64,000 bases of DNA from Vicinamibacteria bacterium (GTDB taxonomy: Bacteria > Acidobacteriota > Vicinamibacteria > Marinacidobacterales > Marinacidobacteraceae): the NCBI GenBank assembly GCA_965199715.1, contig OZ241322.1, positions 1,568,001-1,632,000 of the forward strand, written 5' to 3'. Positions 10,315 through 41,217 of the stretch are shown here, piece after piece. The notes under the pieces were generated by a model. The model saw nothing but the letters and a program-made list of their open reading frames with translations. It ran no database searches and was not told the DNA's origin. Each line of letters starts with the position of its first letter. Positions within the stretch are counted from its first letter, which is position 1. A program made the translations under genes and the position numbers.

Positions 10315-10326
10315 GAAATCCCCTCC

Positions 10327-10932: not shown

Positions 10933-10963
10933 GCGGCCTCCTGTTTCCCGATGCCCGGAAACG

Positions 10964-11548: not shown

Positions 11549-11558
11549 GGGGATCCCG

Positions 11559-13286
11559 TCAGTTCTCCCACTGGGTCACGAAGTCGCGCTTCCCGCCGGG
11601 CGGGCTGTACTCGTAGGGCCAGCGCTTCACCTCGGGAATCTCGCCGGGCCAGTTGCCGTGGCCGGGGTGCGGCGGGGTGGACCACTCCAGCCCGACCGAG
11701 TTCCATGGGTTCTCGGTCGCCGGGGCGCCGAAGCGCATGCTGACGAAGTAGTTCCAGATGAAGATGAGCTGGCCGAGGAAGAGGATGAACGCCGCGATGG
11801 TGATGAACACGTTCACCGGCTGGAGCGGCTGCAGGAACTCGTAGACGTTCGGGTCGTAGATCCGCCGCATCATCCCCGAGACGCCGAGGTAGTGCATCGG
11901 GAAGAACACCGCGTAGTAGGCGATGAACGTGATCCAGAAGTGGATCTTCCCGAGACGCTCGCTGAGCATCCGGCCGAACATCTTGGGATACCAGTAGTAC
12001 ACCGCTCCGAAGGCCCCGAAGAGGCCGGCGCCGGCCATGATGAAGTGGAAGTGGCCGACCACGAAGTAGGTGTCGTGAAGCTGGATGTCGGTCGCGTTGG
12101 TCCCGAGGAATATGCCGGTGAGGCCGCCGGTCACGAACAGCGACACCACGGCAAGCGCGAACAGCGCCGGCGTCGTGAACAGGATGCGCGACCTCACGAT
12201 GGTGAACAGCCAGTTGAACGCCTTGACCGCCGACGGGATCGCGATCGCGAGAGTGGTCACCACGAAGAGGCTGCCGAGGAACGGGCTCATGCCGCTCACG
12301 AACATGTGGTGGCCCCAGACGAGGAAACTGAGGGTGCCGATGGCGACGATCGCGTACACCATCGACTTGTAGCCGAAGATCGGACGGCGGCAGAAGGTGG
12401 CGAGGATGTCCGACGTGAACCCCATCGCCGGCAGCATGATGATGTACACCTCGGGGTGGCCGAGGAACCAGAACAGGTGCTGCCAGAGCAGCGGCGTGCC
12501 GCCCTCGTGGGGCATCAGCGTGTCGCCGATGTAGATGCCGGCGGGCAGGAAGAAGCTGGTGCCGAGCGACCGGTCGAACGTCAGCAGGATGGCGCCGGCG
12601 GCGAGCGCCGGGAAGGACAACAGGCCGAGGATGCCGACCACGAACTGCGCCCAGGTGGTCAGCGGCATACGCATCATCCGCAGGCCCTTCGTGCGCAGGT
12701 TCAGGATCGTGACGACGAAGTTGAGGCCGCCCATCGTGAACGAGGCCACGAAGAAGATCATCCCGACCAGCCAGAGCGTCTGTCCGGCGTCGGAGCCGGG
12801 AATCGCGCTGCGGATCGCCGACAGCGGCGGGTAGGCGGTCCAGCCGGAAGCGGCGGCGCCGCCCTCCACGAAGAACGAGACGATGATGATGATCGCGCCC
12901 GGAACCACGGTCCAGAAGGACAGCATGTTCAGGAACGGGAACGCCATGTCGCGGGCGCCGATCTGGAGCGGGATCAGGAAGTTCCCGAAGCCGCTGACCG
13001 GAAGCAGCGACAGCAGGAAGAACACCATGATCGTCCCGTGCATCGTGAACAGGGACACGTAGAACTCGGGAGTCATGATCCCGCTGGCCATGCCCACCGG
13101 GAACAGGTTCTCGAGGAACGGCCACGGGCGCGAGGGGAACCCGAGCTGCAGGCGGATCAGGACCGCGAGAATCCCGCCGATGAACCCCATGGTCATCGCG
13201 AGCGTGAAGTACTGCTTCCCGATCATCTTGTGATCGAAGCTGAAGACGTACTTGCTTATGAAGCCTTGCTTGTGGCCGTGCTCCAT
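11559..13286 (-). CDS. ctaD: Cytochrome c oxidase subunit I, A1 type
   Basis: DHKMIG, MHG, WFLGHPEVY, WGHHMF, AVK, GHFH. Confidence 0.97.
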   Translation of the reverse strand: MEHGHKQGFISKYVFSFDHKMIGKQYFTLAMTMGFIGGILAVLIRLQLGFPSRPWPFLENLFPVGMASGIMTPEFYVSLFTMHGTIMVFFLLSLLPVSGFGNFLIPLQIGARDMAFPFLNMLSFWTVVPGAIIIIVSFFVEGGAAASGWTAYPPLSAIRSAIPGSDAGQTLWLVGMIFFVASFTMGGLNFVVTILNLRTKGLRMMRMPLTTWAQFVVGILGLLSFPALAAGAILLTFDRSLGTSFFLPAGIYIGDTLMPHEGGTPLLWQHLFWFLGHPEVYIIMLPAMGFTSDILATFCRRPIFGYKSMVYAIVAIGTLSFLVWGHHMFVSGMSPFLGSLFVVTTLAIAIPSAVKAFNWLFTIVRSRILFTTPALFALAVVSLFVTGGLTGIFLGTNATDIQLHDTYFVVGHFHFIMAGAGLFGAFGAVYYWYPKMFGRMLSERLGKIHFWITFIAYYAVFFPMHYLGVSGMMRRIYDPNVYEFLQPLQPVNVFITIAAFILFLGQLIFIWNYFVSMRFGAPATENPWNSVGLEWSTPPHPGHGNWPGEIPEVKRWPYEYSPPGGKRDFVTQWEN

Positions 13287-13311
13287 CGTGTTCTCCAGTG
13301 ACTCCGGGGCG

Positions 13312-14133
13312 TCAGTTCCCGGCGGCGGGGGCGTTTTGGGCCACCCAGGCCTCGTAGTCGCCCGCCTCCATGACCTCGAGGAAGGCGCGCATCCGGTAGT
13401 GGCCGAGACCGCACAGCTCGGCGCAGGCCACCTCGTAGTTGCCGGTCTTGATCGGCGTGAACCACACCTCGGTGCTCATGCCCGGAACCAGGTCGCGCTT
13501 GACCCGGAAGTTGGGCAGGAAGAAGGCGTGCTGGACGTCCTTCGAGCGCAGGAGGATCCGCGCCGGGCGGTCCACCGGGAGCACCAACTGGTTCGTGAGC
13601 ACCCAGTCGTCGGCGGCCGCCGGATCCGCGCCGTCGAGCCCGATCTGGTTGTCGATGGCGTACAGCTCGGGGTTGAAGCGCCCGAACTCGCCGTCCGCGC
13701 CCGGATAGTGGAAGTCCCACTGGAACTGCGCACCGACCGCGATGACGGTGACCGCGTCGTCGGGGGCCGGCTCGTTCACCCGCTCCCAGTACACGAGGCC
13801 GGTGAGCACGATCGGGACGAGGATGACCGCGGTCCCGAGCGTCCAGAACATCTCGAGCCGGTGGCTCTCGTGCCAGTTCGAGGCGACCGCGCCGGGCCGG
13901 TCGCGGTAGCGCCACACCACCCAGCCGAGCGCCACCTGGTAGAGCACGAAGGCGACGCCGGTGATCGCGAGGATGATGTTGTAGAGGCTGTCGAGATAGG
14001 CCCGGTCGGACGCCAGCTCGGGGACTCCGTAGCGGAAGAAGTAGGCGACCGAGGCCGCAACCATCACCCACAGGAACAAGGCGAAGGCGATTCCCGCGAG
14101 GCCGCCGGAAGCCGCTTTCGGATCGTCTGCCAT
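13312..14133 (-). CDS. ctaC: Cytochrome c oxidase subunit II (no fused cyt c)
   Basis: DVQH and CAELCGLGHYRM CuA ligands; SD AGGAG. Confidence 0.95.
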   Translation of the reverse strand: MADDPKAASGGLAGIAFALFLWVMVAASVAYFFRYGVPELASDRAYLDSLYNIILAITGVAFVLYQVALGWVVWRYRDRPGAVASNWHESHRLEMFWTLGTAVILVPIVLTGLVYWERVNEPAPDDAVTVIAVGAQFQWDFHYPGADGEFGRFNPELYAIDNQIGLDGADPAAADDWVLTNQLVLPVDRPARILLRSKDVQHAFFLPNFRVKRDLVPGMSTEVWFTPIKTGNYEVACAELCGLGHYRMRAFLEVMEAGDYEAWVAQNAPAAGN

Positions 14134-14191
14134 GAGGTCTTCTCCTGATTTCCGAACAGGACTCAACGGACCTGCGGGCGCCGCGCCCGCA

Positions 14192-16999
14192 TCAGCGGTC
14201 GTAATTCATGAGATACGTGGCCACGGCCCGCATCTGGGCCATGGGATCGCCGTCGAGAACGTCCGGCAGCGCGGTGACGAGGTTCCCCTGCTGGTCGGTG
14301 GGCCAGAACTGCGGCATCTGGGTGCCTGGCGTGATTCCCTGGGGGTCGAGCAGCCAGTCCACGATCCAGTCGTGCGTGAGCCGCTCGCCGGAAAGGCGGA
14401 ACGACGGGGCGAGCTGCGCCGCGTCCATCGTGCCGGCGGCGGAGGCGATGTGGCAGCGCTCGCACTGGAGCTGGTCGAGGAGCTGGGCGCCGACCCGCAG
14501 CGCGGCCCGCGTCGTCTCGCGCTCGTCCTCGGCGTCGAACGGCTGGCCGCCGTCCATCGCGAGGAAGCCGGTGACCAACGTGTTCGCCTCCTCCGGCGTG
14601 AAGTCGAAGGTCGGCATCCGGGCCTGCATCCAGAAACGGACCTCGCTCGGCTCCCGCAGGAAGTGGTAGAGCCAGTCGGCCTGGGTGCGGGCGCCCTGGG
14701 TGTTCAGGTTCGGCGGATGCATGCCCGAATCCGCGATCGCTTCGTAGATCCCGCCGCCCGCGCCGTCGATGACGTGGCAGCCGCGGCAGTTGTAGTCATG
14801 GATCAGGCGGCGGGCGTCCTCGGCGACCGCCTCGGCCGCGGAGAGCGTCTTGACCCCTTCCATCGGGAACTCGTCGTTCACCTGCCCCAGCACGTTGCGC
14901 ACGAGGTTGAGCCGGTCCGAGTCCTCGAACGCGAAGTACGGCATCCGCAGCTTCTCGCCCGGCAGCTTCTCCTTGCCCCGGTCGTAGCTCCTCGGCGCCG
15001 CCAGCTTGTTGTCCAGCCACGCCTGGCGGGTGTGCGGAACGTCCACGTACCCGAAATCCAGCCGCGTGACCATCTTGGAGCCCCACGTCGAGAGATCCAC
15101 CCCGATGTTCTGGGCTTCCTCGAATCCCGAGATCTCGTGGCAGCCGAAGCAGCCGTAGCGGAGGATGAGACGCTCGCCGGAGTACAGCAGCTTGTCCTGC
15201 TCGGACATCTCCGCGAGCCGTTCGTCGGCCAGCCGCTGCGGCAGCCCGGCGCGGAGGAACTCGCTGGTGATGACGTCCAGCTCGCCGGCGTCCATCGCCG
15301 GCCCGGCCCCGGCCATGAACTCGGGGGTCTCGCGGGAGACGAGCCACGCGGTGACGTCCGCCGCCTCCCGGTTCGTGAGCCGGAGGCTCGGCATGAAGGT
15401 GTCGGCCCAGTGGCTCTTCGGATCGCGGATCCACTCGTAGATGAAGCCCGGATCCAGCTTCGTGCCCGTGCCGGTGAGCGCGGGGCCGCGGCGGCGGTAG
15501 ATGCTCGCGTCGGCGTAGCCGGCCTCGTCGGTCAGGTGGCAGCCGGTGCAGCCCACCTCGGCGAAAAGCGTCTCGCCCCGCCCGGCGTCGCCGGGCGGCG
15601 GGGCCGGGTACTTCGGCTCGTCCGCGGCGCGGTCGAAGATGTACTCGACGATCGCCGCGACCTCGGTGTCGTTGCGCGCCCCGTGGTCGGCGTCGGGGTT
15701 GTTCTCCAGGTCCCAGAACTTCGGCATCCACGTGGAGCTGCGGAACGACTTCGGGTCCTTGACCCAGCGGGCGACGAAGTCCTGCGTGGTCTTGGTGGCG
15801 ATCCGGTTCAGCGAGGGGCCGCGCTTGCGCTTGCCCTCGAAGCCCGCGGTGTTGTGGCAGCCGTAGCAGCCGGCCAGCTCGTAGGTGAGCCGGCTGTCGT
15901 TCAGGTGGGTCGCCTGCGGCACGAAGACCTGGTCGCGGTGGCACTTGATGCAGCCGGCCTCGGTGACGTTCGCCGGGAACATCGGGCTGTCCCAGTAGTG
16001 ATCTTCCCGCCAGTCGTACTTCTCGACCCACTCGAGCTCCTGCTCGTGGTTCTGCGGGCTGTGGGTCGCGCCGGTGAAGGTGAGGCGGCGGCCCCGGCCC
16101 TCGTGGCACGAGGTGCAGCCGAAGTCATCGAGTCCGTGCGCCGATTCGCGGCTCACGTAGAGGTCGAGGTTCGGGTGGGCGCGGAAGGGCTGGGGCGCGT
16201 CCGCGTACTCGGGGTTGTCGATCCCGAGGTGGCAGGTCTGGCAGCGGTCGATCCGAGACACTTGCGCGAAGCTGAGGTCCTCGGTCACGTTGCGGACCAG
16301 AACCTGCTGGACCTCGATCGACGGATCGATGAAGTCCACGAGCGGCAGGTTGCGGAAGGTGTTCGGCAGGCTCGGGCGGAGGCTGTCGCGGCGGAGCCGG
16401 GCGAGCGACACGGCCTGGGTCAGGTCGTCGCGCTCCCCGCCCAGTTCCGAGATCCGGGAGAGCAGCTCCCGGCGCTCGGCGCGGAGGCCGCCCAGATCGT
16501 GGTCGAGGCTCACCCGGACGTCCCTCGCGGCGAAGAAGTCGGTCTCGAGCGTCCGGAACTCCTCGTCGCCGATGGCCTTGCCCCACGGGACCCCCCGGGC
16601 CTTCGTCTCCTCGTAGAAGAACTTGTCCGAGTCGTACACCGCCTTCAGCTCGCGCTCCCGGATGTCGGCGAGCGTGCGCTCGACGTCCAGCTCGCCGATC
16701 CGGGCGTCGATGGCGTCCAGCGCGCCCTGCTCGGCTGCGAGCGCGGCCTCGGCCTCGGCGAGCGCGGCCTCGACCCGCTGCAGCTCGGCCTGGTTCACCG
16801 ACTGGAGCGCCGCCTGCTCCTGGGCGGCGGCCTTCTCGCGCTCCATCGCCGTGAACTGCCGCTGGTAGTCCTTCCACTCCCGCGCGTAGTCGAACCAGAC
16901 CATCCAGAGCGTCGAGGCGAGGAGGAGGGCGCTCGAGAACGCGAAGACGACGTGCAGCGCCTTGATGTTGTGCGCGTGGCCGGGAGCGACTTTCGACAA
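14192..16999 (-). CDS. Membrane-anchored octaheme cytochrome c of Rieske/cyt b complex
   Basis: Eight CxxCH: CQTCH, CTSCH, CIKCH, CYGCH, CTGCH, CFGCH, CRGCH, CERCH; N-terminal TM + coiled coil. Confidence 0.92.
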   Translation of the reverse strand: MSKVAPGHAHNIKALHVVFAFSSALLLASTLWMVWFDYAREWKDYQRQFTAMEREKAAAQEQAALQSVNQAELQRVEAALAEAEAALAAEQGALDAIDARIGELDVERTLADIRERELKAVYDSDKFFYEETKARGVPWGKAIGDEEFRTLETDFFAARDVRVSLDHDLGGLRAERRELLSRISELGGERDDLTQAVSLARLRRDSLRPSLPNTFRNLPLVDFIDPSIEVQQVLVRNVTEDLSFAQVSRIDRCQTCHLGIDNPEYADAPQPFRAHPNLDLYVSRESAHGLDDFGCTSCHEGRGRRLTFTGATHSPQNHEQELEWVEKYDWREDHYWDSPMFPANVTEAGCIKCHRDQVFVPQATHLNDSRLTYELAGCYGCHNTAGFEGKRKRGPSLNRIATKTTQDFVARWVKDPKSFRSSTWMPKFWDLENNPDADHGARNDTEVAAIVEYIFDRAADEPKYPAPPPGDAGRGETLFAEVGCTGCHLTDEAGYADASIYRRRGPALTGTGTKLDPGFIYEWIRDPKSHWADTFMPSLRLTNREAADVTAWLVSRETPEFMAGAGPAMDAGELDVITSEFLRAGLPQRLADERLAEMSEQDKLLYSGERLILRYGCFGCHEISGFEEAQNIGVDLSTWGSKMVTRLDFGYVDVPHTRQAWLDNKLAAPRSYDRGKEKLPGEKLRMPYFAFEDSDRLNLVRNVLGQVNDEFPMEGVKTLSAAEAVAEDARRLIHDYNCRGCHVIDGAGGGIYEAIADSGMHPPNLNTQGARTQADWLYHFLREPSEVRFWMQARMPTFDFTPEEANTLVTGFLAMDGGQPFDAEDERETTRAALRVGAQLLDQLQCERCHIASAAGTMDAAQLAPSFRLSGERLTHDWIVDWLLDPQGITPGTQMPQFWPTDQQGNLVTALPDVLDGDPMAQMRAVATYLMNYDR

Positions 17000-17011
17000 G
17001 ACGAACCGTTC

Positions 17012-18133
17012 CTAGATGTTGAAGAAGATCTCGGGGAAGGCGACGATGTACTTCAGGTTGAAGAACCAGCGCAGGTACATCTTGATGGGCAGGCTCAGCA
17101 TCATCAGGAAGAGCGAAACTCCGACGTAGTAGCGCACCGCTCCCATCTTCTCGTAGTACTTGTTGAGGCTCAGCCACTTGAGGCCCGCGGGGAACCGCGA
17201 ATTCGGCCACGAGAGGGCCACCGGCAGCACGAGCACGTAGGCGCCCACCATGAGCACGCCGAGCCATTCGCGCAGTAGCGCGTTGAAGAGGCCCCCCGAC
17301 GGCAGCGGCATCCCGAGCAGCTTCACCCAGAAGAAGTCGGAGACGTTGACGTTCAGCAGCGGCTCCACCCGGTGGACGTCCCAGTACTCGTAGGGGCCGA
17401 AGAAGTTCCAGTTGGGCCCGCGCAGGAAGGTGCCCGAGACGACGAGCACCGACCACAGGATCAGGAAGCCGTAGAGGAAGATCGCGATCTCGGCCTTCCG
17501 CTCCTTGAACGTGTAGTAGCCGTTCCCCTTGGGGTTCGTGTCGATGTAGGGGATGGCCATGAGCCCGACGATGATGAGCGTCGGGAACACCACGCCGGCG
17601 AGCCACGGGTCGAAATAGACCAGCATCTCCTGGAGGCCGAGGAAGTACCACGGAGCCTTCGAGGGGTTCGGCGAGTCGGCGGGGTTCGCCGGTTGCTCGA
17701 GCGGCGCGGCGAGGAGGATGGACCAGACCAGCAGCACCACGCTGAGCAGGACCATCGCCAGCATTTCGGTATAGACGAGGTCGGGCCAGACCCAGACCTT
17801 CTCCGACTCCGCCTTCTCCAGCGGCGGCTCGCCCGCGGCCTTCCGCCGATCGTTCTCGAGCCCCTGGTGCATCGCGTACCAAGTGAAGAAGAGGACGAGG
17901 AAGAGGACTCCGGTGATCGGGATGTTGTCCGGCTTGGCGACGATCAGGAGGAAGTTCGGGTCCCACATGCTCGCGACGTAGAACACCGAGAAGACGGCGA
18001 AGAAGGCCTTCGCCGCGGTCCGGTGCCAGACGCCGGTGAAGCGGAAGGCGAGCAGGAGGCCGACCGTGCAGATGGTGAACAGCACCGTCGGGCCGGAGCC
18101 CCAGTTCACGATGTTCCGGAAGAGATCGAGCAC
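17012..18133 (-). CDS. Cytochrome b subunit IV-like (PetD/QcrC) with extra TM helices
   Basis: VWPD, PLEQPANP...PNPSKAPWYFLG (PEWY equivalent), IPYID. Confidence 0.88.
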   Translation of the reverse strand: MLDLFRNIVNWGSGPTVLFTICTVGLLLAFRFTGVWHRTAAKAFFAVFSVFYVASMWDPNFLLIVAKPDNIPITGVLFLVLFFTWYAMHQGLENDRRKAAGEPPLEKAESEKVWVWPDLVYTEMLAMVLLSVVLLVWSILLAAPLEQPANPADSPNPSKAPWYFLGLQEMLVYFDPWLAGVVFPTLIIVGLMAIPYIDTNPKGNGYYTFKERKAEIAIFLYGFLILWSVLVVSGTFLRGPNWNFFGPYEYWDVHRVEPLLNVNVSDFFWVKLLGMPLPSGGLFNALLREWLGVLMVGAYVLVLPVALSWPNSRFPAGLKWLSLNKYYEKMGAVRYYVGVSLFLMMLSLPIKMYLRWFFNLKYIVAFPEIFFNI

Positions 18134-18196
18134 GCTGTCAGCCGTTTCGGGTTTCGGTTGCGGGGGCGGAGATCACGGGATGACGACTGCGGCCGG

Positions 18197-18997
18197 CTAC
18201 ATCGGGCCGGAGATTCCTCCGTCCTTGCGGACCCGCCAGAAATGCACCGCCATGAGGACCGCGGCGACGAGCGGAAGCCCCACGCAGTGCAGCACGTAGA
18301 AGCGCAGGAGCGTCGGCTGGCCGATCGAGCGGGCGCCCAGAAGGGCGAAGCGGGCGTCGTTCCCGGTGTTGACGAGGCTGATGTCCCCGAGCGTGAGCGA
18401 CGCGCTGAGCGGCCCCTCGGTGCCGAGCAGCGGGGTCGCGCGGGCCATGTTCGAGCCCACCGCGATCGCCCAGATCGCGAGCTGGTCCCACGGCAGCAGG
18501 TAGCCGGTGAAGGACAGCAGCAGGGTGAGGACGAGCAGCACCACGCCGATGCCCCAGTTGAACTCGCGCGGCGGCTTGTAGGAGCCGGTCATGAACACCC
18601 GGAGCATGTGCAGCCAGACGGTGATGACCATGGCGTGGGCGCCCCACCGGTGCAGCTCCCGCATGATGCCGAGCGGGACGTGCTCTTGCAGGTCCACGAT
18701 GTCCGCGTAGGCGTACTCGACCGTGGGCCGGTAGTAGAACATCAGGAGCAGGCCGGTGAAGGTCAGGACGAGGAACAGGAAGAAGGTCACGCCGCCCATG
18801 CACCAGGTGTAGCGGAGCTTGATCCCCGCCTTCCGCGACTTCACCGGGTGGAGGTGCAGGAACACGTTGCTCATCATCACGAGCGCGCGGTTCCGGTTGC
18901 TCACCGGCTTCCCGTGCCGGAAGACCGAGGACCAGATCTGGTTGTTGGTGGCTTCCTTCCAGGCTCCCTTGAGCGAATCGAGGATGCGGTTCAGCAC
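18197..18997 (-). CDS. petB: Cytochrome b6-like subunit
   Basis: WCMGG (heme ci Cys), [31 protein letters not shown]. Confidence 0.93.
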
Positions 18998-19012
18998 GGG
19001 CGGGCGCTCCGA

Positions 19013-19588
19013 TCAGACCATGGGGAGGAACGAGTTGGTGTCCTCCCACTGGTTGGCCTCGAACTTGTAGAGGCGGGACTTGTCGATGAGGATCTGGCCG
19101 TCGTCGGCGAGGCTCACGCCGACCCGTTCCAGCGGACGGGGCGCCGGCCCCTCGAAGTTGATGCCGCTGATGTAGAACCCGCTGCCGTGGCAGGGGCACT
19201 TGAACTTGGACTCGGCCTCGAGCCAGTTGGGCGTGCAGCCGAGGTGGGTGCAGATCGTCGAGAGCGCGTAGATCTTTTCCTCGTCGCGGACGATCCAGAC
19301 CTGGTAGCGCTCCTTGAAGCGGGTGTCCACCACGCCGATCGCGAAGTCGTCGGGGAACCCGGCCGTGAAAGTCGAGGGCGGCTCGGTGAGCACGTTCGGG
19401 AACATGAACCGCCCGGCGGCGGTCAGCCCGGCGCCGACGGCGGCGATGAAGAACCCCCACGCGATGGCGAGGAACGGAAACTCGCGGCGGGTGACCTTCT
19501 GCGCGCCGGCCTTGGGGGACCGTTTCGGGGCGACCTTCGGAGGAGGCTTCGGAGCGCTCGCCGCGGGAGGGTCAGTCGTTTCGGGCAT
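19013..19588 (-). CDS. petC: Rieske 2Fe-2S subunit
   Basis: Tat TRREF; CTHLGC, CPCHGS, GPAPRPL. Confidence 0.93.
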   Translation of the reverse strand: MPETTDPPAASAPKPPPKVAPKRSPKAGAQKVTRREFPFLAIAWGFFIAAVGAGLTAAGRFMFPNVLTEPPSTFTAGFPDDFAIGVVDTRFKERYQVWIVRDEEKIYALSTICTHLGCTPNWLEAESKFKCPCHGSGFYISGINFEGPAPRPLERVGVSLADDGQILIDKSRLYKFEANQWEDTNSFLPMV

Positions 19589-19624
19589 CGGGAACTCGGA
19601 TGGGCTGATGGGCGAGCGGCCGCA

Positions 19625-19630
19625 ATTCTA
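19625..19630 (-). promoter_or_regulatory. Candidate -10 box (TAGAAT) of respiratory operon
   Basis: AT-rich TAGAAT in the 65-nt gap upstream of the Rieske gene. Confidence 0.5.
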
Positions 19631-19653
19631 TATGGAAGCCGGCCCGGTTTCGG

Positions 19654-20541
19654 TCATTGGGGAAGGGTCGGCGCGGCCATGTCGCCGGCGGCGAGCACGC
19701 GCAGCGCGACCTCGCGGGTTCGCAGGTCCGGGTCGGAGGCCCCGATCTCCCGCAACGCCTCCAGCACCCGGGGCGACCGGAGCGCTCCGGCGGCCTGGAT
19801 GGCGCTCAGCCGGGCCAGCATCCGCTCGCCCTCCCCGACGCCGGCGAGGCCGTTCCAGTAGGCGGGCCCCAGCATCCCGAGCAGGCGGCCCTCGGCGCTC
19901 GGATCGCCGAGCCGGGCGAGCGCGACGACCGCGTTCATGGACACGTCGATCTCGGGATCGTCCATTGCGCGCAGCAGCGAATCGGCGCCCCTCGGGTCGC
20001 CGATGGCGCCGAGCGCGTACACCGCCATGGTCCGCACGCCGGCGTCGGCGGACCGGCTCGCCGCGATCAGGGCGTCCACGGATCCCGGGCCGCCGATCGC
20101 GCCGAGCGCCCACGCGGCGTACACCTGGACCGTCGGGTCGTCGTCGTCGAGCGCCTCGACGAGCGCCGGCGTCGCGCGCGGGGTTCCGATGGTCCCGAGC
20201 GCCAGCGCGAGGTACTGGCGCACCCACGGGTCGGTCCGGGGGGCCTCCTCGAAGGCGCGCACCAGCTCCGGGGCGAGCGTGCGGTAGTCCTCGGCCTCGC
20301 CGTGCTGGATCCGGTTCGCCAGCTCGAACGCCGCCTGCCGCCGCTCGCGGGCGTTGCCGGAGCGGACGCGGTTCAGGTAGTCCTCGGCGGTGGTGTCGTC
20401 GGAAACCAGCCACGCGAACCCGAGGAACAGCCCGACGCCGACGACGACCACCCCCATCGGGATGACGAAGAGCTGGAGGAGGGTGCGGGCGAAGGAGACG
20501 TCCGGCTCGGCGTCGGGCGTCGGGCTCGCGGGCTCGGTCAT
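19654..20541 (-). CDS. Membrane-anchored HEAT-repeat (PBS lyase-like) protein
   Basis: N-terminal TM; repeats VRQYLALALGTIG, VQVYAAWALGAIG, VRTMAVYALGAIG. Confidence 0.85.
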   Translation of the reverse strand: MTEPASPTPDAEPDVSFARTLLQLFVIPMGVVVVGVGLFLGFAWLVSDDTTAEDYLNRVRSGNARERRQAAFELANRIQHGEAEDYRTLAPELVRAFEEAPRTDPWVRQYLALALGTIGTPRATPALVEALDDDDPTVQVYAAWALGAIGGPGSVDALIAASRSADAGVRTMAVYALGAIGDPRGADSLLRAMDDPEIDVSMNAVVALARLGDPSAEGRLLGMLGPAYWNGLAGVGEGERMLARLSAIQAAGALRSPRVLEALREIGASDPDLRTREVALRVLAAGDMAAPTLPQ

Positions 20542-20555
20542 CGATCAACCGGGAA

Positions 20556-26096: not shown

Positions 26097-26152
26097 GGTC
26101 ACGCGTCGGGACGAGATTCTAAGCGAGCGTCGATCCGTACAATGGGCTGACG

Positions 26153-27673
26153 ATGCGGAAAGCCTTCGGAGCGGCGCTTCTCCTTGCTTGCGGGAGTCCC
26201 CCGCCGGAACCGGCGCTCTCGGTCGTCGAGCTGGATATCGCGGGGATCCACGCGGGGCTGGCGGCCGGCGACTTCCGCTGCTCCGAACTCGTCGCCGCCT
26301 ACCTCGCCCGGATCGAGGCCTACGACCGGCAGGGTCCCACGCTGAGCGCGATCGTGGCGGTGAACCCGCAGGCCGAATCGCGCGCCCGAAAGGCGGACGA
26401 GCGCATCGCCCGGGACGGGATCGCCCGCCCGCTCGAGTGCGTGCCGATGATCGTGAAGGACAACTACGACACGGCGGACATGCCCACGACCGCCGGTTCG
26501 GCCTCGCTCGCCGCGTCCGTTCCGCCGGACGACGCCTTCCAGGTGCGGCGGATCCGGGAAGCCGGGGCCATCGTGCTGGCCAAGTCGAACATGGCGGAGT
26601 TCGCGTTCAGCCCGAACGAGAGCCTCGGGTCGGTGGTGCCCGGGCACACCCGCAACCCCTACGACCCCCGCCGCGTGCCCGCCGGCTCCTCGGGCGGCAC
26701 CGCGGCCGCGGTCGCGGCCAGCTTCGGCGCGGTCGGGCTGGGCACCGACACCGGGAACTCGATCCGCGGCCCGTCCTCGCACGCGGCGCTCGTCGGAATC
26801 CGCTCCACGATGGGGATCACGAGCCGCGACGGGATCGTGCCGCTGAACCTGTTCCGCGACGTCGGCGGGCCGATGGCGCGCACCGTCGAGGACGCGGTGC
26901 GGGTGTTCGACGTGATCGCGGGGCCGGATCCGGCGGATCCCGCCACCGAGGGCTTCGAACGCGACGAGGACTACCGGACGGCGCTCGACGCCGCGCCGCT
27001 CGACGGGATGCGGATCGGCGCGGTCCGGCAGCTCTCGGACGTGGAGACCGCCGATCCCGAAATCCTCGCGCTCTTCGAGGCGGCGCTCGCGGACCTCGCG
27101 GCGCTCGGGGCCGAGATCGTGGGTCCGGTCGTGATCCCGATGCTGGACGAGGAGCGCAGCCTGTGGTGCAACCCGTTCAAGGCGCACCTCGAGGCGTATC
27201 TCATGAGCCTCGGGCCGGACGCGCCGGTGCGGACGCTCGCCGAAATCGTGGAGGGCGGCGACTTCCACCCGTCCATCGAGGGACGGCTCGAAACGGCGCT
27301 CGAGGTCGAGGAAGCGCCGGAGAACGGCTGCGCCGACGCCATGGCGGGAGCCGACGCGCTGCGCGCCGAGGTCGAGGCGGCCTTCGCCGGCGACGGGCTG
27401 ACCGCGCTCGCGTACCCCACGTGGAGCAACCCGCCGCGGATGCTCGGGGATCTCGTGACTCCGGGCGGAAACAACTCGTACCAGTTGTCGCCGCCGACCG
27501 GCTTCCCTGCGGTCACCGTTCCGATGGGGTTCACGGGCGACGGACTGCCCGGCGGGCTGCAATTGCTCGGGCGGGCGCGGCAGGAGGCGGCGCTGATCCG
27601 GCTCGCCTTCGCGTTCGAGCAGGCCACGCTCCACCGCCGGCCGCCGCCGACCACGCCGGAACTCGCGCCGTGA
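26153..27673 (+). CDS. Amidase signature family lipoprotein
   Basis: LLLAC lipobox; VKDN, GSSGG, GTDTGNSIR. Confidence 0.92.
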   Translation: MRKAFGAALLLACGSPPPEPALSVVELDIAGIHAGLAAGDFRCSELVAAYLARIEAYDRQGPTLSAIVAVNPQAESRARKADERIARDGIARPLECVPMIVKDNYDTADMPTTAGSASLAASVPPDDAFQVRRIREAGAIVLAKSNMAEFAFSPNESLGSVVPGHTRNPYDPRRVPAGSSGGTAAAVAASFGAVGLGTDTGNSIRGPSSHAALVGIRSTMGITSRDGIVPLNLFRDVGGPMARTVEDAVRVFDVIAGPDPADPATEGFERDEDYRTALDAAPLDGMRIGAVRQLSDVETADPEILALFEAALADLAALGAEIVGPVVIPMLDEERSLWCNPFKAHLEAYLMSLGPDAPVRTLAEIVEGGDFHPSIEGRLETALEVEEAPENGCADAMAGADALRAEVEAAFAGDGLTALAYPTWSNPPRMLGDLVTPGGNNSYQLSPPTGFPAVTVPMGFTGDGLPGGLQLLGRARQEAALIRLAFAFEQATLHRRPPPTTPELAP

Positions 27674-35300: not shown

Positions 35301-35724
35301 GCGCGGCCTCGGCCTCCTCGAGCCGGCCCGACGCGGCGTCGAGCGAACCGAGGTAGTACCAGGTCATGGAGTCGTCCGGGTTCATCTCGGCGACCCGGGC
35401 GAAGGCGGCGCGCGCGTCGTCGGTGTTGCCCTCGAGCTTGTCGATCAACCCGAGGTTGTAGTGCGCATGCGGGCTGCCCGGATCCAGCTCTCGCGCGCGT
35501 CGGAACGAGGCCCGCGCGGCCGCGAAGTCGCGCTCGTTGAACCACGCGATCCCGAGGTTCACGTGCGCGTCCGCCGAGTGGGGACGCAGCTCCGCCACCC
35601 GCTGGAATTCGACGGCGGCGTCGGCGAATCTGAACTGCTCGAGGAGCGCGACCCCGCGGCTCATCCGGGTCGCCGCCTCGTCGGCCGGTGGCGCGGCGAG
35701 CAGCGCGAGGGCGAGCAGGAGCAT
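32323..35724 (-). CDS. Secreted TPR + FG-GAP repeat + ASPIC/UnbV (CRTAC1-like) protein
   Basis: Signal peptide, TPRs, DxDGDxDxD repeats, SNLDGVGTKI...HFGLG, KGTSCP. Confidence 0.9.
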   Translation of the reverse strand: MLLLALALLAAPPADEAATRMSRGVALLEQFRFADAAVEFQRVAELRPHSADAHVNLGIAWFNERDFAAARASFRRARELDPGSPHAHYNLGLIDKLEGNTDDARAAFARVAEMNPDDSMTWYYLGSLDAASGRLEEAEAALRRAILLTPEHESAHFSLGNVLVRAGRREEGRAQLQKFQELKEAFAGAGVSAGLQYTELGPYAEAIEPAPASLYRQTQEPASGPAAFVEATEDWGLLLPPIAPDPLLARLGSGVAFRDLDGDDRPELAFVRDGAVLLFRNVGGRFERWEDSGVETTNAISVTIGDVDLDGRPDIYVAAAGPNPLFLHRGDRFELSEAAAGDEVSVGATLADFDHDGDLDVYVANYALSVGDDGAGAPNRLFRNNRDGTFTDVAVETRTTGGSRRSLAAIFSDWDDDRDVDFAVVNDGAPVQVFSNDRVGTFTEVSEAWGVETAGRMRGVSGGDFDRDGMFDLVLTADGGALNMLLRGGAGGFAPDAVSPGFLGAGAPGSRYGVSLLDADHDMDLDLLTVTNEPGAVLALHRNGPGGLLRAASLDAALEPDEGARALALADVDGDGDLDAVAGTNRGRLLAFRNETPDPGRWMAVRPTGLRSNLDGVGTKIEVRVAGVSQRREVRTTSGYLSQDDLPAHFGLGAAAAADYVRLLWPGGVKQIELDLPAAALASVEELNRKGTSCPVLYAWDGERIRFVTDFLGGSALGNLLAPGMFNTPDTAEVVKMESFPLVARDGHYEMRWLNQLEEVIFYDRAELWVADHPPDVDVFPDERLLPAPPFPAPGLVAVQNRRPPSSAEWAGTDGAARDRTDALLAVDRVYVDDFALLPFKGYAEEHTLTLRFDDVREGAEHVLLLYGWVDYADSSSNLSAAQAGAAGLPPVLEVLGDDGAFRTALDPMGFPAGLPKTMVVPLDGVPLASGEPLRIRTNMRIYWDRAELAERASLAAVTVTRIDAATADLGFAGYPEPHRPGGLPPGEYRYRNLRSSDSWGAHAGAYTRFGDVRPLLAKVDDRYVIARHGDEIRLRFAEAPALADGLERSFFVLADGFGKDMDLNSARPHTVGPLPFHGMPAYPYPDGAYPDSEALRTWRAEYNTRRIGPEARHGFLDSEGGREPTGDPSERR

Positions 35725-35767
35725 CGCTCGCAATTATGGCGAGAGGCGTAGCATTCGCGCCGCTCGC

Positions 35768-37648
35768 ATGATCCAGCTCTCCCGCGCTTCCAAGGCCTTC
35801 GGCGAGCAGGTCCTGCTTCGGGACTCGTCGTTCCGGGTGCAGGAAGGCGACCGCGTGGGACTCGTCGGGCCGAACGGTTCGGGGAAGACGACGCTGCTGC
35901 GGATCCTCGCCGGGCAGGTGGAGCTGGACGCCGGCGAGGTCGTGCGGGCGCGCGACCGGCGGTGCGCGTACCTGCCGCAGGACGGCCTCCGCCACGAGGG
36001 CCGGAGCCTCTTCGAGGAGGCCCGCAGCGCGTTCCAGGACCTGCTGGACCTGCGCGAGGAGCAAGAGCGCATCTCGGGGAAGCTCGCGTCCCGACCAGAC
36101 CTGCTGCAGCGGTTCGGGCAGATCGAGGACGAGTGGCAGCGCCGGGGCGGGTATTCGCTCGAGGCGCGGATCGCCGAGGTGCTCGCCGGCCTCGGCTTCG
36201 AGGAGTCCGACCACGGCCGCCCCACCGAGACGTTCAGTCAGGGATGGCAGATGCGGATCGCGCTGGCGAAGCTGCTGGTGCAGGGGAACGACCTGATCCT
36301 CCTCGACGAGCCGACGAACTACCTCGACATCGAGGCGCGGGCCTGGCTCCTCGGGTTCCTGAACCGCCATCGGGGCGGCCTGGTGCTCGTGGCCCACGAC
36401 CGGTACTTCCTCGACTCGGTGGTGACCCGCATCACCGAGATCGGGATGGAGGGGCTGCGGGACTACCCGGGCAGCTTCAGCCGCTACGAGGTCAAGCGGG
36501 CCGCCGAGATCGCCGACCTCCGCAAGCGGGCGCAGGAGCAGCAGGAGGAGATCGAGCGCTGCCAGCGATTCATCAGCAAGTTTCGCTACCAGGCGAGCCG
36601 GGCGCGGCAGGTGCAGAGCCGCGTCAAGGCGCTCGCCCGGATGGAGCGGATCGTCGCCCCGCCCGAGCCGCGCCGCTTCCGCCTGCGGCTGCCGCCCCCG
36701 CCGCGTTCCGGTCCGGTCCCGGTCCGGCTGGAATCCATCGCGAAGGCGTACGGCGACAACGTGGTGTTCCGAAACGCGGACGTGACGGTCGAGCGGGGGC
36801 AGCGGCTCGCGCTGATCGGCCCCAACGGGGCGGGCAAGTCCACGCTGATGCGCCTGCTGGCCGGGGCGGAGGCGCCCGACCGGGGCTCCCGGGAGCTCGG
36901 CCACAACACGAAGATCGCTTACTACGGGCCGGACCGGCACGACCTCAACCCCGAGCGGACGGTCCGCCAGACGATGTCCGACGCGGCCTCGCTGGAGATG
37001 CTCCCGCAGATCCGCGACATCCTCGGGGCGTTCCTGTTCTCGGGCGAGACCGTCGAAAAGCGCACCGCCGTGCTCTCCGGCGGGGAACGCAGCCGGCTCG
37101 CGCTGGCGCGGCTGCTGCTGCGTCCGGCGAACCTGCTGCTTCTGGACGAGCCCACGAACCACCTCGACCTCGCCTCTAAGGCGGCGCTCCTGGACGCGCT
37201 CAAGGCGTACCGGGGGACGATCGTCTTCGTGGCGCACGACCGGTACTTCATGGACGCGCTGGCGACCCGGGTGGCCGCGATCGGGGGCGGCGAGGCCGCG
37301 CCCTACTGGGGGAACTACAGCGACTGGCTCGCCCGCCAAGCCGGCGAGAAGGCCCCGGCGCCGGCCCTCCGGCGGAAGGAGCCGGCCAAGAAGGCCGCCC
37401 CGAAGGAGGCGATGTCCAAGAACCGCCTCCGGCGGCTGCGGCGCGAGTGGAAGGAGGCGTTCGACCGGGTGGCCGCCGCCGAGAGCAGCATCGAGGAGAT
37501 GGAGACCCGCATGGCGACGCCCGGGTTCTTCGAGGACCGCGAGACGTCCCGGCGGGTCGCCCGGGAGTACGAGGTGCTGAAGTCGGCGCTGCCCGCGCTG
37601 TTCAAGACCCTCGAGGGCCTCGACGCCCAGTTGGGCGAGAGCCGGTAG
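35768..37648 (+). CDS. ABC-F family ATPase
   Basis: Two NBDs (GPNGSGKTT, GPNGAGKST; DEPTNYLD, DEPTNHLD), no TM, coiled C-terminus. Confidence 0.93.
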   Translation: MIQLSRASKAFGEQVLLRDSSFRVQEGDRVGLVGPNGSGKTTLLRILAGQVELDAGEVVRARDRRCAYLPQDGLRHEGRSLFEEARSAFQDLLDLREEQERISGKLASRPDLLQRFGQIEDEWQRRGGYSLEARIAEVLAGLGFEESDHGRPTETFSQGWQMRIALAKLLVQGNDLILLDEPTNYLDIEARAWLLGFLNRHRGGLVLVAHDRYFLDSVVTRITEIGMEGLRDYPGSFSRYEVKRAAEIADLRKRAQEQQEEIERCQRFISKFRYQASRARQVQSRVKALARMERIVAPPEPRRFRLRLPPPPRSGPVPVRLESIAKAYGDNVVFRNADVTVERGQRLALIGPNGAGKSTLMRLLAGAEAPDRGSRELGHNTKIAYYGPDRHDLNPERTVRQTMSDAASLEMLPQIRDILGAFLFSGETVEKRTAVLSGGERSRLALARLLLRPANLLLLDEPTNHLDLASKAALLDALKAYRGTIVFVAHDRYFMDALATRVAAIGGGEAAPYWGNYSDWLARQAGEKAPAPALRRKEPAKKAAPKEAMSKNRLRRLRREWKEAFDRVAAAESSIEEMETRMATPGFFEDRETSRRVAREYEVLKSALPALFKTLEGLDAQLGESR

Positions 37649-38188
37649 CTACTCCAGTTCCACGCCGAGGCCGCTCGCGATGCGGTTCACGTAGCCGTAG
37701 TAGGCGGTGACGGCGCAGGCGTCGTGGACGTCCCGGTCCGTGAGTCCGGCGTCCCGCAGCGGCGCGAGGTCGCCTTCGGTCATCGCGCCGGGGGCGCGCG
37801 CCAGCTTGATCGCGTAGTCGGCGAGGGCGCGGAACCGGGGCGGCAGCGGCGCGCCGTCCGGATCCCGGACCAGCGCCTCGACCAGGTCCCGGTCGCGGGT
37901 GAGCCGGAGGAGACCCCTCCGGTGGTGCTCGATTCAGTAATGGCACTCGTTCACGGTCGAGACCGCGACCGCGATGATCTCGCGCTCGGCGAGGCTGAGC
38001 CCCGACGGGCCGCGCATCAGGTGCTCGTAGAGCGACAGGTGGTGCTCGAGCGCCCCCGGATTCAGGCTGCTGGCCCGCAGGATGTTGTCCATCTTGCCGT
38101 CCGGGCGGCGATGTTCGCGATAGATCCGGCCGAGCGTTCCCTCCTTCGCCTCGGGGTCGTCGGGGGCGACCATCCGGATCCACGCCAT
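37649..38188 (-). CDS. AhpD/CMD-like peroxidase-related selenoprotein (CxxU, Sec85), 179 aa
   Basis: EREIIAVAVSTVNECHY-TGA-IEHHRRGL...YAIKL...YYGYVNRIASGLGVELE; frame continues through TGA 37934-37936. Confidence 0.88.
37904..37922 (-). promoter_or_regulatory. Bacterial SECIS element
   Basis: CCGGAGG-GGTCT-CCTCCGG hairpin starting 11 nt after in-frame TGA. Confidence 0.8.
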
Positions 38189-38225
38189 GGGGAACCGGAG
38201 CATAGTCGGCCGTAGGATTCCCGCC

Positions 38226-38663
38226 ATGATTCGAGCGGCCTGCGACGGGTCCTGCCTCGGCAACCCGGGGCCCGGCGGCTGGGCCGCGGTGCTGCGCCTG
38301 CCGACCGGCGAGGAGCGGGTCCTCACCGGCGGCGAGGCCGAGACCACGAACAACCGCATGGAGCTCGTGGCCGCGATCCACGCGCTGGACGCGCTGCCCG
38401 AGAACGAGGCCGCGGAGATCCTCTGCGACAGCACCTACGTCATCCAGGGAGTCGAGCAGTGGGTGCCCCGCTGGATCCGGCGGGGATGGATGACCTCGAA
38501 GAAGCAGCCGGTGAAAAACCGGGATCTGTGGATGCGGCTCGCCGACGCCCGGGCCGCCCGCCCGATGGCGCGATTCCGCTGGGTGCGCGGCCACGCGGGA
38601 AACCCGGACAACGAGCGGGCGGACGCGCTGGCGCTTCAGGCGGCGAGGAGCCAGGCGCGATGA
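38226..38663 (+). CDS. rnhA: Ribonuclease HI
   Basis: [37 protein letters not shown]. Confidence 0.96.
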
Positions 38664-39583
38664 GCGACGGGACCCGGGCGTATCGGCTCCTCACGGCGGA
38701 CGTGTTCACCGACCGGGTCTTCGAGGGGAACCCGCTCGCGATCCTCCCCGACGCCCGCGGCCTCTCCGGCGCCTCGATGCAGAAGATCGCCGCCGAGATG
38801 AACCTCTCGGAGACCGCCTTCGTGCTGCCGCCCGAGGATCCCCGCGCGATCCGCAAGCTGCGCATCTTCACGCCGGCGGCGGAACTGCCGCTGGCCGGGC
38901 ATCCCGTCGTCGGGACCTTCTTCGTGCTCGCCTCGAGGGGAGAGCTCGGCGATCTTGGCGACGGCGACCACCGGATCCATCAGGAGTGCGGCGCCGGGGT
39001 CCTGCCCGTGGACGTCCGCGTCCGGGACGGCCGGGTGGAGCAGGTCGTGATGACGCAGGCTCCGCCGCAGTTCCTCGCCGCGAGCCGCGACCGGGACGCG
39101 CTCGCCGCGAGCCTCGGACTCGACCCCGCCGACGTGCTGCCGGAGAACCTGCCGGCCCGGGTGGTTTCGACCGCGCTGCCCCAGCTCATGGCGCCGGTGC
39201 GCTCGCTCGGGGCCGTGGGGCGCATCCGGGTGGACGCCGGCGCGCTCGCGCGACTGCTCGGCCCACTCGGTTCCGAGTGCGTCATGGCGTTCTCGACCGA
39301 GTGCGCCCATGAGGAGAGCGCCGCCCACGCGCGCATGTTCGCGCCGGGGCTCGGCGTCCACGAGGATCCGGCGACGGGGAGCGCCGCCGGGGCGCTCGGC
39401 GCGTACCTCGTCCGCTACGGCCTCGCGAAGGGCGACCGGATGACCGTCGAGCAGGGGTACGAGATGGGCCGCCCGAGCGCGATCGGGGTGGAAGTCGAGT
39501 GCGAGAACGGCGATCCCCGCCGGGTGCTCGTCGGCGGGCGGGCGGTCGAGGTCTCGGAGGGCCTTATTCGGGTCCCGGCGTGA
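38660..39583 (+). CDS. PhzF family epimerase
   Basis: DVFT...[26 protein letters not shown]. Confidence 0.93.
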
Positions 39584-41153
39584 GCGCGATCCGCTCGCCG
39601 GACAGCGGCGGCGTGTGCGCCGGAGTCCGCCGCGCCCGGGCGCGCTGCTCGAAGGCGTAACCGAGCGCGAGGAGCCGGGGTTCGCTGAAGGCGGGGCCGA
39701 GGAAGGAGATCCCGACCGGCAGCCCGTCCCCGGTGAATCCGGCGGGAACGATCAGGTCGGGAAAGCCGCTCAGGTTGGCGAAGCGGACCGGACTCGGGCC
39801 GCCGAATCCGCCCCGGCCCGAACGCAGCGGAGGCCGGGACACCGAGGTCGGATAGACGAGCGCGTCGAGGTCGTGCTCCTCGAGCAGGCCGGTGAGGATG
39901 GCGCGGACGAGCGGCAGGCCGTGCTCCCGGACGGCGAGGTGCTCGGCGTCGGTGACCGAACCGCTCGCGTTCTCGCGCAGGAACAGGCTCCAGCGGCCCG
40001 GGTTGGGCGTGAGCCCGTCGCCGGGCGCGGTGAGTTCGCGGGACCGCTCCACGATCTCGTCGAGCGTGCGCGGGTGGCCGGGGCCGAGCGTCGCGAGGTA
40101 ATTCTCGATCTGGGCGCGGAACTCGGGCCACCGGACCGCCGTGTAGAAGTCGTCCTCGATCTCGAGCAGCCATCCGGGAAGACGCGCCTCGACGACCGCG
40201 GCGCCGGCCCGCTCCATCGTCGCGACCGCGGCCTCGACCACCCAGTCCACCTCCGGATCGACCCCCGCGAAGTCGCGGAGGATCCCGAGGCGGGCTCCCG
40301 AGAGCGCGTCCGCGTCGAGGAACCGCGAATAGTCGGCGTGGCTCATGCCCTCGCTCGCGGAAGTGGCCGGGTCCGCCGGATCCACGCCGGTCATGACTCC
40401 GAGCGCGAGCGCCACGTCGGCCACGTTCCGCGCCATCGGGCCGCCGGTGTCGAACGAAAGCGCGAGCGGGACGACGCCGTCGCGGGAGAGGAGTCCGAGC
40501 GTGGGTTTGAGCCCCGCCACGCCGTTGGCCGTCGAGGGGCCGCGCACCGAGCCGCCGGTGTCGGTGCCGAGCCCCATGAAGGCGTAGCCCGCGGCGATCG
40601 CGGCGCCGGTGCCGCCGGACGAGCCCGACGGGCTGCGGGCCGGATCGTGCGGGTTGCGGGTCACGCCGCCGAGCGAGCTCATCGCGCCGCCCGACGCGAA
40701 CTCGCTCATGTTCACCTTGGCGATCACGATCGCGCCGGCCTCGCGCAGCCTCCGCACCACGAAGGCGTCGTCCGGGGGAACCGAGTCGGCCAGCAGGAAG
40801 GAGCCGGCCGTCGTGGGCATGTCGGCGGTGTCGAAGTTGTCCTTCAACACGATGGGAATGCCGTGGAGCGGCGACCGTGGGCCGGACTCCGCCCGTTCCC
40901 GGTCGAGCGCCCGCGCGCGCTCCGTCGCCCGCGGGTTGACCGCGATGACGGCGTTGATCCGCGGCCCCTCGTCGTCGTAGGCGGAGATCCGCGCGAGGCA
41001 GAGCTCCACCAGACGCTCCGACGTCACCGCGCCGGAGTCCAGCGCCGCGGCGAAGTCCGCGATCGTGCCCGAGGTCAGCTCCAGCGAGTCCTGGGCGGCC
41101 AACGGAGCCGCCGGAAGAAGGGCGAGGAGCAGGCGGAGCAGGAACGGTCGCAT
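39564..41153 (-). CDS. Secreted amidase signature family protein
   Basis: Signal peptide; LKDN, SGSSGG, GTDTGGSVR. Confidence 0.92.
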   Translation of the reverse strand: MRPFLLRLLLALLPAAPLAAQDSLELTSGTIADFAAALDSGAVTSERLVELCLARISAYDDEGPRINAVIAVNPRATERARALDRERAESGPRSPLHGIPIVLKDNFDTADMPTTAGSFLLADSVPPDDAFVVRRLREAGAIVIAKVNMSEFASGGAMSSLGGVTRNPHDPARSPSGSSGGTGAAIAAGYAFMGLGTDTGGSVRGPSTANGVAGLKPTLGLLSRDGVVPLALSFDTGGPMARNVADVALALGVMTGVDPADPATSASEGMSHADYSRFLDADALSGARLGILRDFAGVDPEVDWVVEAAVATMERAGAAVVEARLPGWLLEIEDDFYTAVRWPEFRAQIENYLATLGPGHPRTLDEIVERSRELTAPGDGLTPNPGRWSLFLRENASGSVTDAEHLAVREHGLPLVRAILTGLLEEHDLDALVYPTSVSRPPLRSGRGGFGGPSPVRFANLSGFPDLIVPAGFTGDGLPVGISFLGPAFSEPRLLALGYAFEQRARARRTPAHTPPLSGERIALTPGPE

Positions 41154-41217
41154 GGGCGCCGGATGCTATCCGCCGGGTGCGAGGCCCGCCGGAAGCGAGC
41201 CGCGCGAAGCGTTCGGG

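Follow-up and report, generated by a model that had tools for sequence, protein, structure and literature searches.

An AhpD-like gene of a Vicinamibacteria genome with an in-frame UGA codon that is very probably read as selenocysteine

Does an in-frame TGA close a short gene, or does it specify a residue in the middle of a longer one? The question is raised by a locus in a 64,000-nucleotide stretch of a Vicinamibacteria bacterium genome (assembly GCA_965199715.1, contig OZ241322.1, positions 1,568,001 to 1,632,000), where a reading frame for the N-terminal part of an AhpD-like protein runs into a TGA and continues beyond it. This whole stretch is called the window here, and all positions are counted within it. 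An earlier reading of the sequence, referred to below as the original prediction, had proposed a hidden selenoprotein of the CxxU type. The analysis reported here makes it very probable that a single gene at this locus encodes a 179-residue AhpD-like thiol/selenol oxidoreductase and that its UGA codon 85 specifies selenocysteine (Sec).

One reading frame across the TGA

The whole gene occupies 38188..37649 on the minus strand. The original prediction had the coordinates, 37649..38188, right and left the strand unstated. Translation with TGA as U gives 179 codons (M1 to E179, with U85) followed by TAG, and the resulting read-through protein, MAWIRMV...STVNECHY-U-IEHHRRGLLRL...GLGVELE, has a sole in-frame TGA. 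The N-terminal part, M1 to Y84 (37937..38188, minus strand), is the piece that a standard gene caller gives; likewise, the entry in a mechanical list of open reading frames (ORFs), 37934..38434, stops at ...NECHY. The TGA itself (37936..37934, minus strand) is codon 85, the proposed Sec codon, at the second redox position of the motif C82-H-Y-U85. The C-terminal part, I86 to E179 (37652..37933, minus strand), which includes H89, would be made only if the UGA is recoded, and it has the 94 codons that had been claimed for it. The true stop is a TAG (37651..37649, minus strand), adjoining the TAG (37646..37648) of a convergent ABC-F ATPase gene. An alternative upstream ATG at 38203 leads to an 89-amino-acid call, P0022, in the protein collection; the start at 38188 is favoured because homologs begin with MAWIR.

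The base composition is that of coding sequence on both sides of the TGA. By codon position, the GC content is 0.68/0.44/0.93 upstream of it and 0.81/0.49/0.95 downstream; the window as a whole has 71% GC, and its confident ORFs have a third-position GC content (GC3) above 0.85.

Profile matches also run through the TGA. The model TIGR01926, 'peroxidase-related enzyme' (COG2128), matches with 145.4 bits against a cutoff of 81.8, and pairs residues 11-176 with profile positions 8-173 of 178, across the TGA. The Pfam CMD profile matches the read-through protein at 2.9e-15, and TIGR00778 (ahpD_dom) is matched as well, which bears out the assignment of the protein to the AhpD/CMD-like family. Solved structures of Cys-form AhpD-like proteins align with residues 7-176 (3c1l, 7.6e-29; 2pfx, 4.6e-27; 6k40, 1.1e-23), and the structure of PA0269 (2o4d) is also matched, at 1.3e-5. 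With the canonical AhpD model, TIGR00777, the protein scores 17.2 bits, below the cutoff of 191.95. It scores 45.9 bits with NF041238 (AhpD_rel_CFYUT), below the cutoff of 175. The latter model describes a (seleno)protein that is AhpD-related and carries a CxxU motif, like the window protein, but it is a different family: its profile has 357 positions and aligns with the window protein by its C-terminal half only.

Conservation of the TGA among homologs

If codon 85 is a catalytic position, full-length relatives should reveal which residue belongs there. A search for proteins of similar length returned 19 matches, made up of 16 full-length relatives and 3 half-length fragments, and a search for shorter proteins returned 70. 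Every full-length relative (16/16) has Cys at the column of the TGA, in agreement with the claim that the TGA replaces the second Cys of a CxxC motif. The N-terminal fragments from both searches are equally uniform: each of the 50 closes with C-x-Y at reference residue 84, and 49 of them are not from the window. The C-terminal fragments (n = 23) start at assorted internal positions. Several N- and C-terminal fragments pair up on the same megabase-scale contig and are therefore not contig-end truncations. The window's own gene is stored in the protein collection as two pieces, P0022 (89 amino acids) and P0070 (44 amino acids), just the split annotation that had been foreseen. An alignment of the mixed N- and C-terminal fragments (A2) was misaligned by MAFFT and dropped; A3 was used instead.

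The same column was then read from genomic DNA. The pattern ERE[LM]IAV[AV]V, which the window itself does not match (EREIIAVAV), occurs in at least 595 stretches, of which 589 were confirmed. In the best 80 of these 589 loci the codon aligned to U85 is TGC in 49 and TGT in 12 (61 Cys in all), TGA in 15, a Gly codon in 3 and a Ser codon in 1; being drawn from the best 80, the Sec to Cys proportion of 15:61 is no census. This was the homolog check at position 85 that the original prediction had called for, and its outcome is the expected mixture of Cys and TGA. The 15 TGA loci come from Acidobacteriota, Gemmatimonadota, Actinomycetota (Acidimicrobiia), Planctomycetota (Planctomycetales) and unclassified metagenome-assembled genomes (MAGs). 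Among the loci listed, the nearest ortholog is that of an Acidobacteria MAG (L001), 75% identical to the window protein.

The sequence beyond the TGA is conserved in the manner of translated sequence. In all 15 loci another 94-112 codons follow the TGA before the frame closes, and across these loci the C-terminal half is about as identical to the window protein as the N-terminal half. Between the window and L001 the ratio of nonsynonymous to synonymous substitution rates (dN/dS) is 0.29 for the C-terminal half and 0.125 for the N-terminal half. A maximum-likelihood tree places every one of the 16 Sec forms (the window and the 15 loci) in one subfamily of 32 rows with a support of 100/99. This subfamily holds 16 Sec, 12 Cys and 4 Gly/Ser forms, and the other 49 Cys forms make up a separate clade. 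A reading that is given little weight takes Sec as the ancestral state in the 32-member subfamily and Cys as derived.

The second redox residue has been lost in four homologs, to Gly in L026, L027 and L037 and to Ser in L077. The C-x-Y-G forms belong to two Thermoplasmatota MAGs and one Thermotogae MAG, and the C-x-Y-S form to a Caldilineaceae MAG. L026 has lost the first Cys too.

The hairpin downstream of the TGA

A TGA within a selenoprotein gene of bacteria is expected to be followed closely by a bacterial selenocysteine insertion sequence (bSECIS). In the window the TGA is followed by 11 nt, ATCGAGCACCA, and then by CCGGAGG, the loop GGTCT and CCTCCGG. The perfect 7-bp stem with a 5-nt GGUCU loop, 11 nt past the UGA, is thus exactly as the original prediction had described it; the loop begins 18 nt after the UGA, and the predicted folding energy is -12.6 kcal/mol. 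The hairpin lies at 37922..37904 on the minus strand (5' arm 37922..37916, loop 37915..37911, 3' arm 37910..37904). The bSECIS model, as set out in PMC13188914, has a loop of 3-9 nt, an upper stem of 4-16 bp and a G in the first two loop positions, with a UGA-to-loop distance of 16-37 nt and a minimum free energy (MFE) of -7.5 kcal/mol or lower. The bSECIS prediction that had been suggested as a check was made by applying these published limits, and the window hairpin (5 nt, 7 bp, GG, 18 nt, -12.6 kcal/mol) lies within all four. A permissive Rfam scan of 37800..38000 gave four matches at chance level (E 1.2-3.9), none of them to a SECIS family.

The likeness to the SECIS of E. coli fdhF that had been pointed out for this hairpin is borne out in its spacing and loop sequence. 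Around Sec140 of E. coli K-12 fdhF, 11 nt separate the TGA from the 5' arm of the upper stem (GGTTGCA), and GGTCT begins 18 nt past the TGA, both offsets being identical to those of the window. The two elements differ in their stems. The fdhF upper stem, GGUUGCA...UGCACC, needs one unpaired U (read by eye), whereas the window stem is an uninterrupted, G+C-rich helix of 7 bp. The bulged U of the fdhF stem matters for SelB binding; no such U was found in the window stem, where the seven pairs are unbroken. Moreover, the fdhF loop is closed by an A-U pair that reduces it to GGUC (again by eye), while that of the window has 5 nt. The host proteins, formate dehydrogenase H and an AhpD-like protein, are unrelated.

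How much does such a hairpin mean in DNA of 71% GC? The bSECIS model is permissive, since, with both strands of the window counted, 137 of 980 TGA triplets satisfy it at 16-37 nt. With the distance narrowed to 16-22 nt, 62/980 (6.3%) pass, and 10/980 (1.0%) have a hairpin as strong as that of the window. When the codons were resampled synonymously with the window's usage, an equally strong hairpin arose in 496 of 20000 trials (2.5%). Stem and loop depend on two rare codons, AGG (Arg) and GGT (Gly), each of which makes up only 4% of the codons for its amino acid in the window.

Sec and Cys forms were compared with a strict, no-bulge implementation of the model. This test, specific for position and shape, was substituted for raw MFE, which failed as a discriminator (see below). 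Hairpins that fit the model at 16-22 nt occur in 10/16 Sec forms, in 1/12 Cys forms of the same subfamily (C-x-Y-C-x-x-H-H) and in 7/49 other Cys forms (Fisher p = 0.0047 when Sec forms are compared with the Cys forms of their own subfamily, and 0.00016 when they are compared with all Cys forms).

Covariation was sought in a codon-aligned, gapless alignment from the TGA to +45 (A4) of the window and the 15 loci. The hairpin occurs in two registers 2 nt apart, with a UGA-to-loop distance of 16-18 nt throughout. The register centred near column 24 includes the window, L001, L020, L033 and L030, and that centred near column 22 the Gemmatimonadota, Chloracidobacterium and Thermoanaerobaculia loci. 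With the registers grouped by eye before counting, 81% of the cells are paired in the window register (n = 6), compared with 55.6% in shuffles (reached by 0/500) and 36-60% with slid partners, and 5 of its 7 pairs change on both sides, i.e. in a compensatory manner. In the other register (n = 10) 82.5% of the cells are paired, compared with 30-56% for slid partners. In the little-favoured reading with Sec as the ancestral state, the hairpin would have slid by 2 nt between lineages.

Many alphaproteobacterial Cys-form loci (L031, L042, L043, L044, L069, L075 and others) have a strong GC hairpin at the place of the SECIS. That of L044, in the 42 nt after the second Cys codon, reaches -23 kcal/mol. 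These Cys forms are of the C-x-Y-C-L-T-A-H-G-A-A-V-R type, and their hairpins may be a by-product of near-palindromic AHGAAVR codons or else a SECIS relic.

Is codon 85 read as selenocysteine?

In the mechanism that we propose, UGA codon 85 would be read as Sec during translation, with the hairpin 11 nt downstream acting as a bacterial SECIS element. It would bring SelB with its Sec-tRNA(Sec) to the ribosome, where the complex would compete with release factor 2. A global reassignment of TGA does not apply here, because TGA ends 26 of the 33 confident ORFs of the window. Sec insertion at codon 85 implies that the organism uses selenium and should carry selA, selB, selC and selD. Selenoproteins are not foreign to the phylum: Table 2 of a 2006 survey (PMC1794560) credits Acidobacteria with 4 selenoproteins in 3 families.

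A number of results weigh against the selenoprotein interpretation. Scans of 37 ORFs gave no selA, selB or selD in the 64-kb window, which is part of a contig of about 2.3 Mb. Nor is there a tRNA(Sec) in the window (ARAGORN reports 0 tRNAs, and Rfam 0 matches at the gathering score) or, by ARAGORN, in the flanks of the 15 Sec-form loci. The nearest 79 of 201 ORFs extracted from these flanks also gave no sel gene. As to the hairpin, any hairpin conforming to the model arises in 3949 of 20000 synonymous resamplings (19.7%), the fold of a 76-nt segment is unexceptional (z = -0.43), and 6/16 Sec forms fail the strict no-bulge model; in these six the stem at this place is shorter, weaker or bulged. 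Nor can Sec forms be told apart by the raw MFE of the 42 nt that follow the codon (median -12.75 kcal/mol, against -15.6 for Cys forms; one-sided p = 0.97); this control failed because of the strong hairpins in Cys-form homologs. The grouping of registers by eye favours structure. Finally, the register near column 22 is nearly without covariation, with one pair changing on both sides and 80/500 shuffles doing as well, because its ten sequences are too alike.

Taken alone, the hairpin is no more than moderately improbable. What makes the case strong is where it lies, downstream of a TGA that occupies the column of a catalytic Cys.

The alternative that survives best keeps the recoding and changes the residue. 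A suppressor tRNA would read the UGA and place Cys, Ser or Trp at codon 85 (CxxC, CxxS or CxxW), candidates being a tRNA(Sec)-like tRNA(Cys) with the anticodon UCA working with a SelB-type factor, an acidobacterial 'allo-tRNA' or a near-cognate tRNA(Trp). Precedents are described in PMC5389517, according to which a selC* tRNA(Cys)UCA mimics tRNA(Sec) and reads opal as Cys in an E. coli test, and allo-tRNAs of Acidobacteria may be nonsense suppressors. The prevalence of Cys at this column in the 61 loci mentioned above would suit such decoding, as would the lack of Sec machinery in the window scans. However, the selC* genes reported in that source come from Firmicutes, Thermodesulfobacteria, Nitrospirae and Proteobacteria, not from Acidobacteria, and every genome found there to carry one was also equipped with complete Sec machinery. 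An ordinary Cys codon would serve equally well, without a costly UGA and hairpin. Retention of both the TGA and the hairpin across at least four phyla is what one would expect if Sec itself is selected, and CxxU selenoproteins of this family are already on record. Suppression of this kind is therefore judged very unlikely. Just as little weight is given to a mixed scheme, in which a non-canonical tRNA would serve the SECIS-flanked UGA and the one gene would yield Sec, Cys or Ser depending on selenium supply.

It is less likely still that the locus makes two small proteins, an 84-residue N-terminal product and an internally started C-terminal product, which may assemble non-covalently. The collection does hold C-terminal fragments with internal starts, e.g. 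at reference residue 103. Some 84-residue product is also to be expected under Sec insertion, with which termination competes (PMC4513850 gives 30-40% recoding for E. coli). Nevertheless, residues 86-102 would belong to neither fragment, although they are conserved in frame and include the relay residue H89. The internal starts vary with the lineage (87, 96, 102, 103, 123 and 136), as artefacts of gene callers would, and the alignments with TIGR01926 and the Protein Data Bank structures are unbroken across the junction.

That the TGA is a genuine stop, owing to a pseudogene, a recent nonsense mutation or a sequencing error, with a decaying remnant downstream, is likewise extremely improbable and effectively refuted by conservation: TGA is the usual stop of the window, gene callers end the ORF there and no Sec machinery was seen in the window, but the same column holds TGA in 15 independent assemblies from several phyla, 49/49 independent N-terminal fragments end at it, the frame beyond it is open in 15/15 loci with halves equally identical to the window, a dN/dS of 0.29 and a GC3 of 0.95, and a random nonsense mutation would strike the catalytic Cys column with a chance of about 1/179.

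Catalytic residues and probable function

With Sec at codon 85 as the preferred reading, the residues around it can be compared with those of AhpD. The proton relay of AhpD, as given in PMC3141380, consists of Glu118/Cys130/His132/Cys133/His137 in M. tuberculosis, and that of P. aeruginosa PA0269 of Glu36/Cys48/Tyr50/Cys51/His55. In the window protein E70, C82, Y84, U85 and H89 fit the same spacing, E-x11-C-x-[H/Y]-C-x3-H. E70 (codon 37979..37981, minus strand), 12 residues before C82, is the candidate equivalent of the relay glutamate. E70, C82 and Y84 are invariant in 50 sequences. The window protein has the CMD/AhpD helical core and the relay spacing in common with both proteins and shares with PA0269 a Tyr at the third relay position. 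It differs from both in having Sec in place of the second Cys and in lying outside the TIGR00777 subfamily. At the level of the locus, a further difference from AhpD is that no ahpC gene is adjacent; the neighbours are genes for an ABC-F ATPase, RNase HI and a PhzF-family protein.

The second Cys is the nucleophile in AhpD. By analogy, Sec85 would carry out the attack and Cys82 would resolve the intermediate, with formation of a selenenylsulfide. The putative relay Glu70/Cys82/Tyr84/Sec85/His89, equivalent to that of AhpD, would thereby reduce a peroxide or an oxidised, peroxiredoxin-type partner. The common relay spacing and the invariance of E70, C82 and Y84 make a peroxidase or adaptor function the most likely one, that is, a selenol/thiol peroxidase or a peroxiredoxin-reducing adaptor. 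The gene neighbours contain no clue to the substrate.

Place among the known AhpD-like selenoproteins

AhpD-like selenoproteins had been described before, as the original prediction stated. The Sargasso Sea study of 2005 lists CxxU forms (COG2128) with 27 sequences (PMC1088965), and in the Global Ocean Sampling data of 2008 'AhpD-like 1' appears among the most abundant families, with 299 sequences (PMC2398784). A table of a 2026 review has the entry 'AhpD-like protein, TIGR01926, CxxU' (PMC13188914), and a database paper of the same year uses the AhpD-like family as a browsing example (PMC13326102). The window protein belongs to the same hidden Markov model family as the published one and has the same order of features: Sec second in the motif, a SECIS directly downstream and a G opening the apical loop. 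The published sets consist mostly of marine metagenome reads, while the copy described here lies in a genome of 71% GC; there is no essential difference between them.

The window gene thus adds a member to a selenoprotein family known since 2005, of which it is an ordinary example, and it raises no new question on recoding or on AhpD-like enzymes. Its practical value lies in correct annotation, since gene callers routinely cut such genes in two. At least 49 relatives have been cut in the same way, so that the selenoproteomes of Acidobacteriota and Gemmatimonadota are under-counted.

Gene neighbourhood and other features of the window

The selenoprotein gene is flanked by a convergent ABC-F ATPase gene, a divergent RNase HI gene and a PhzF-family gene. 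The ABC-F ATPase gene (35537..37648, plus strand) has a stop that abuts that of the selenoprotein gene with no base between them (TAGCTA, 37646-37651); with the TAG stops abutting, a terminator could not fit between these genes. On the other side, the start of the selenoprotein gene at 38188 (minus strand) and the likely RNase HI start, an ATG at 38226 (plus strand), diverge across 37 bp (38189-38225). The RNase HI profile match begins at residue 37 of the 38124 frame.

In the Gemmatimonadota loci L002, L003, L006, L009, L011, L012 and L013 a gene for an NlpC/P60 peptidoglycan hydrolase consistently lies upstream of the Sec-form gene, and groES-groEL often downstream. In Chloracidobacterium (L005) a thioredoxin gene and a DsbD-like gene are found within 3 kb upstream of the Sec-form gene. 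In L017 the Sec-form gene is directly followed by an EgtB/SenA-like gene, a match below the cutoff. Neighbours with TPR repeats are common to L001 and the window.

Other selenoprotein genes in the window were sought as adjacent ORFs in the same frame. Four such pairs (10326/10327, 17011/17012, 19012/19013 and 56754/56755) were rejected as separate genes because each pair matches two different families (e.g. HslV and HslU, or Rieske and cytochrome b).

A respiratory gene cluster at 10018-20544 (minus strand) encodes a Rieske protein, cytochrome b, an ExtQ-like membrane protein and a 939-residue multi-haem cytochrome c, and continues with CoxB, CtaD, two subunit-III-like proteins and a caa3 subunit IV. 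The best NCBIfam match of its cytochrome b is ExtP, of a selenite/tellurite reduction operon, with 267 bits against a cutoff of 290. The link of the Ext families to selenium is here a resemblance in name only, because the matches are below the cutoff. Finally, the window contains two paralogous amidase genes 12 kb apart, at 26123-27673 (plus strand) and 39564-41165 (minus strand). Both have NF006006 as their best match, with 365 and 460 bits, respectively, under its cutoff of 534.

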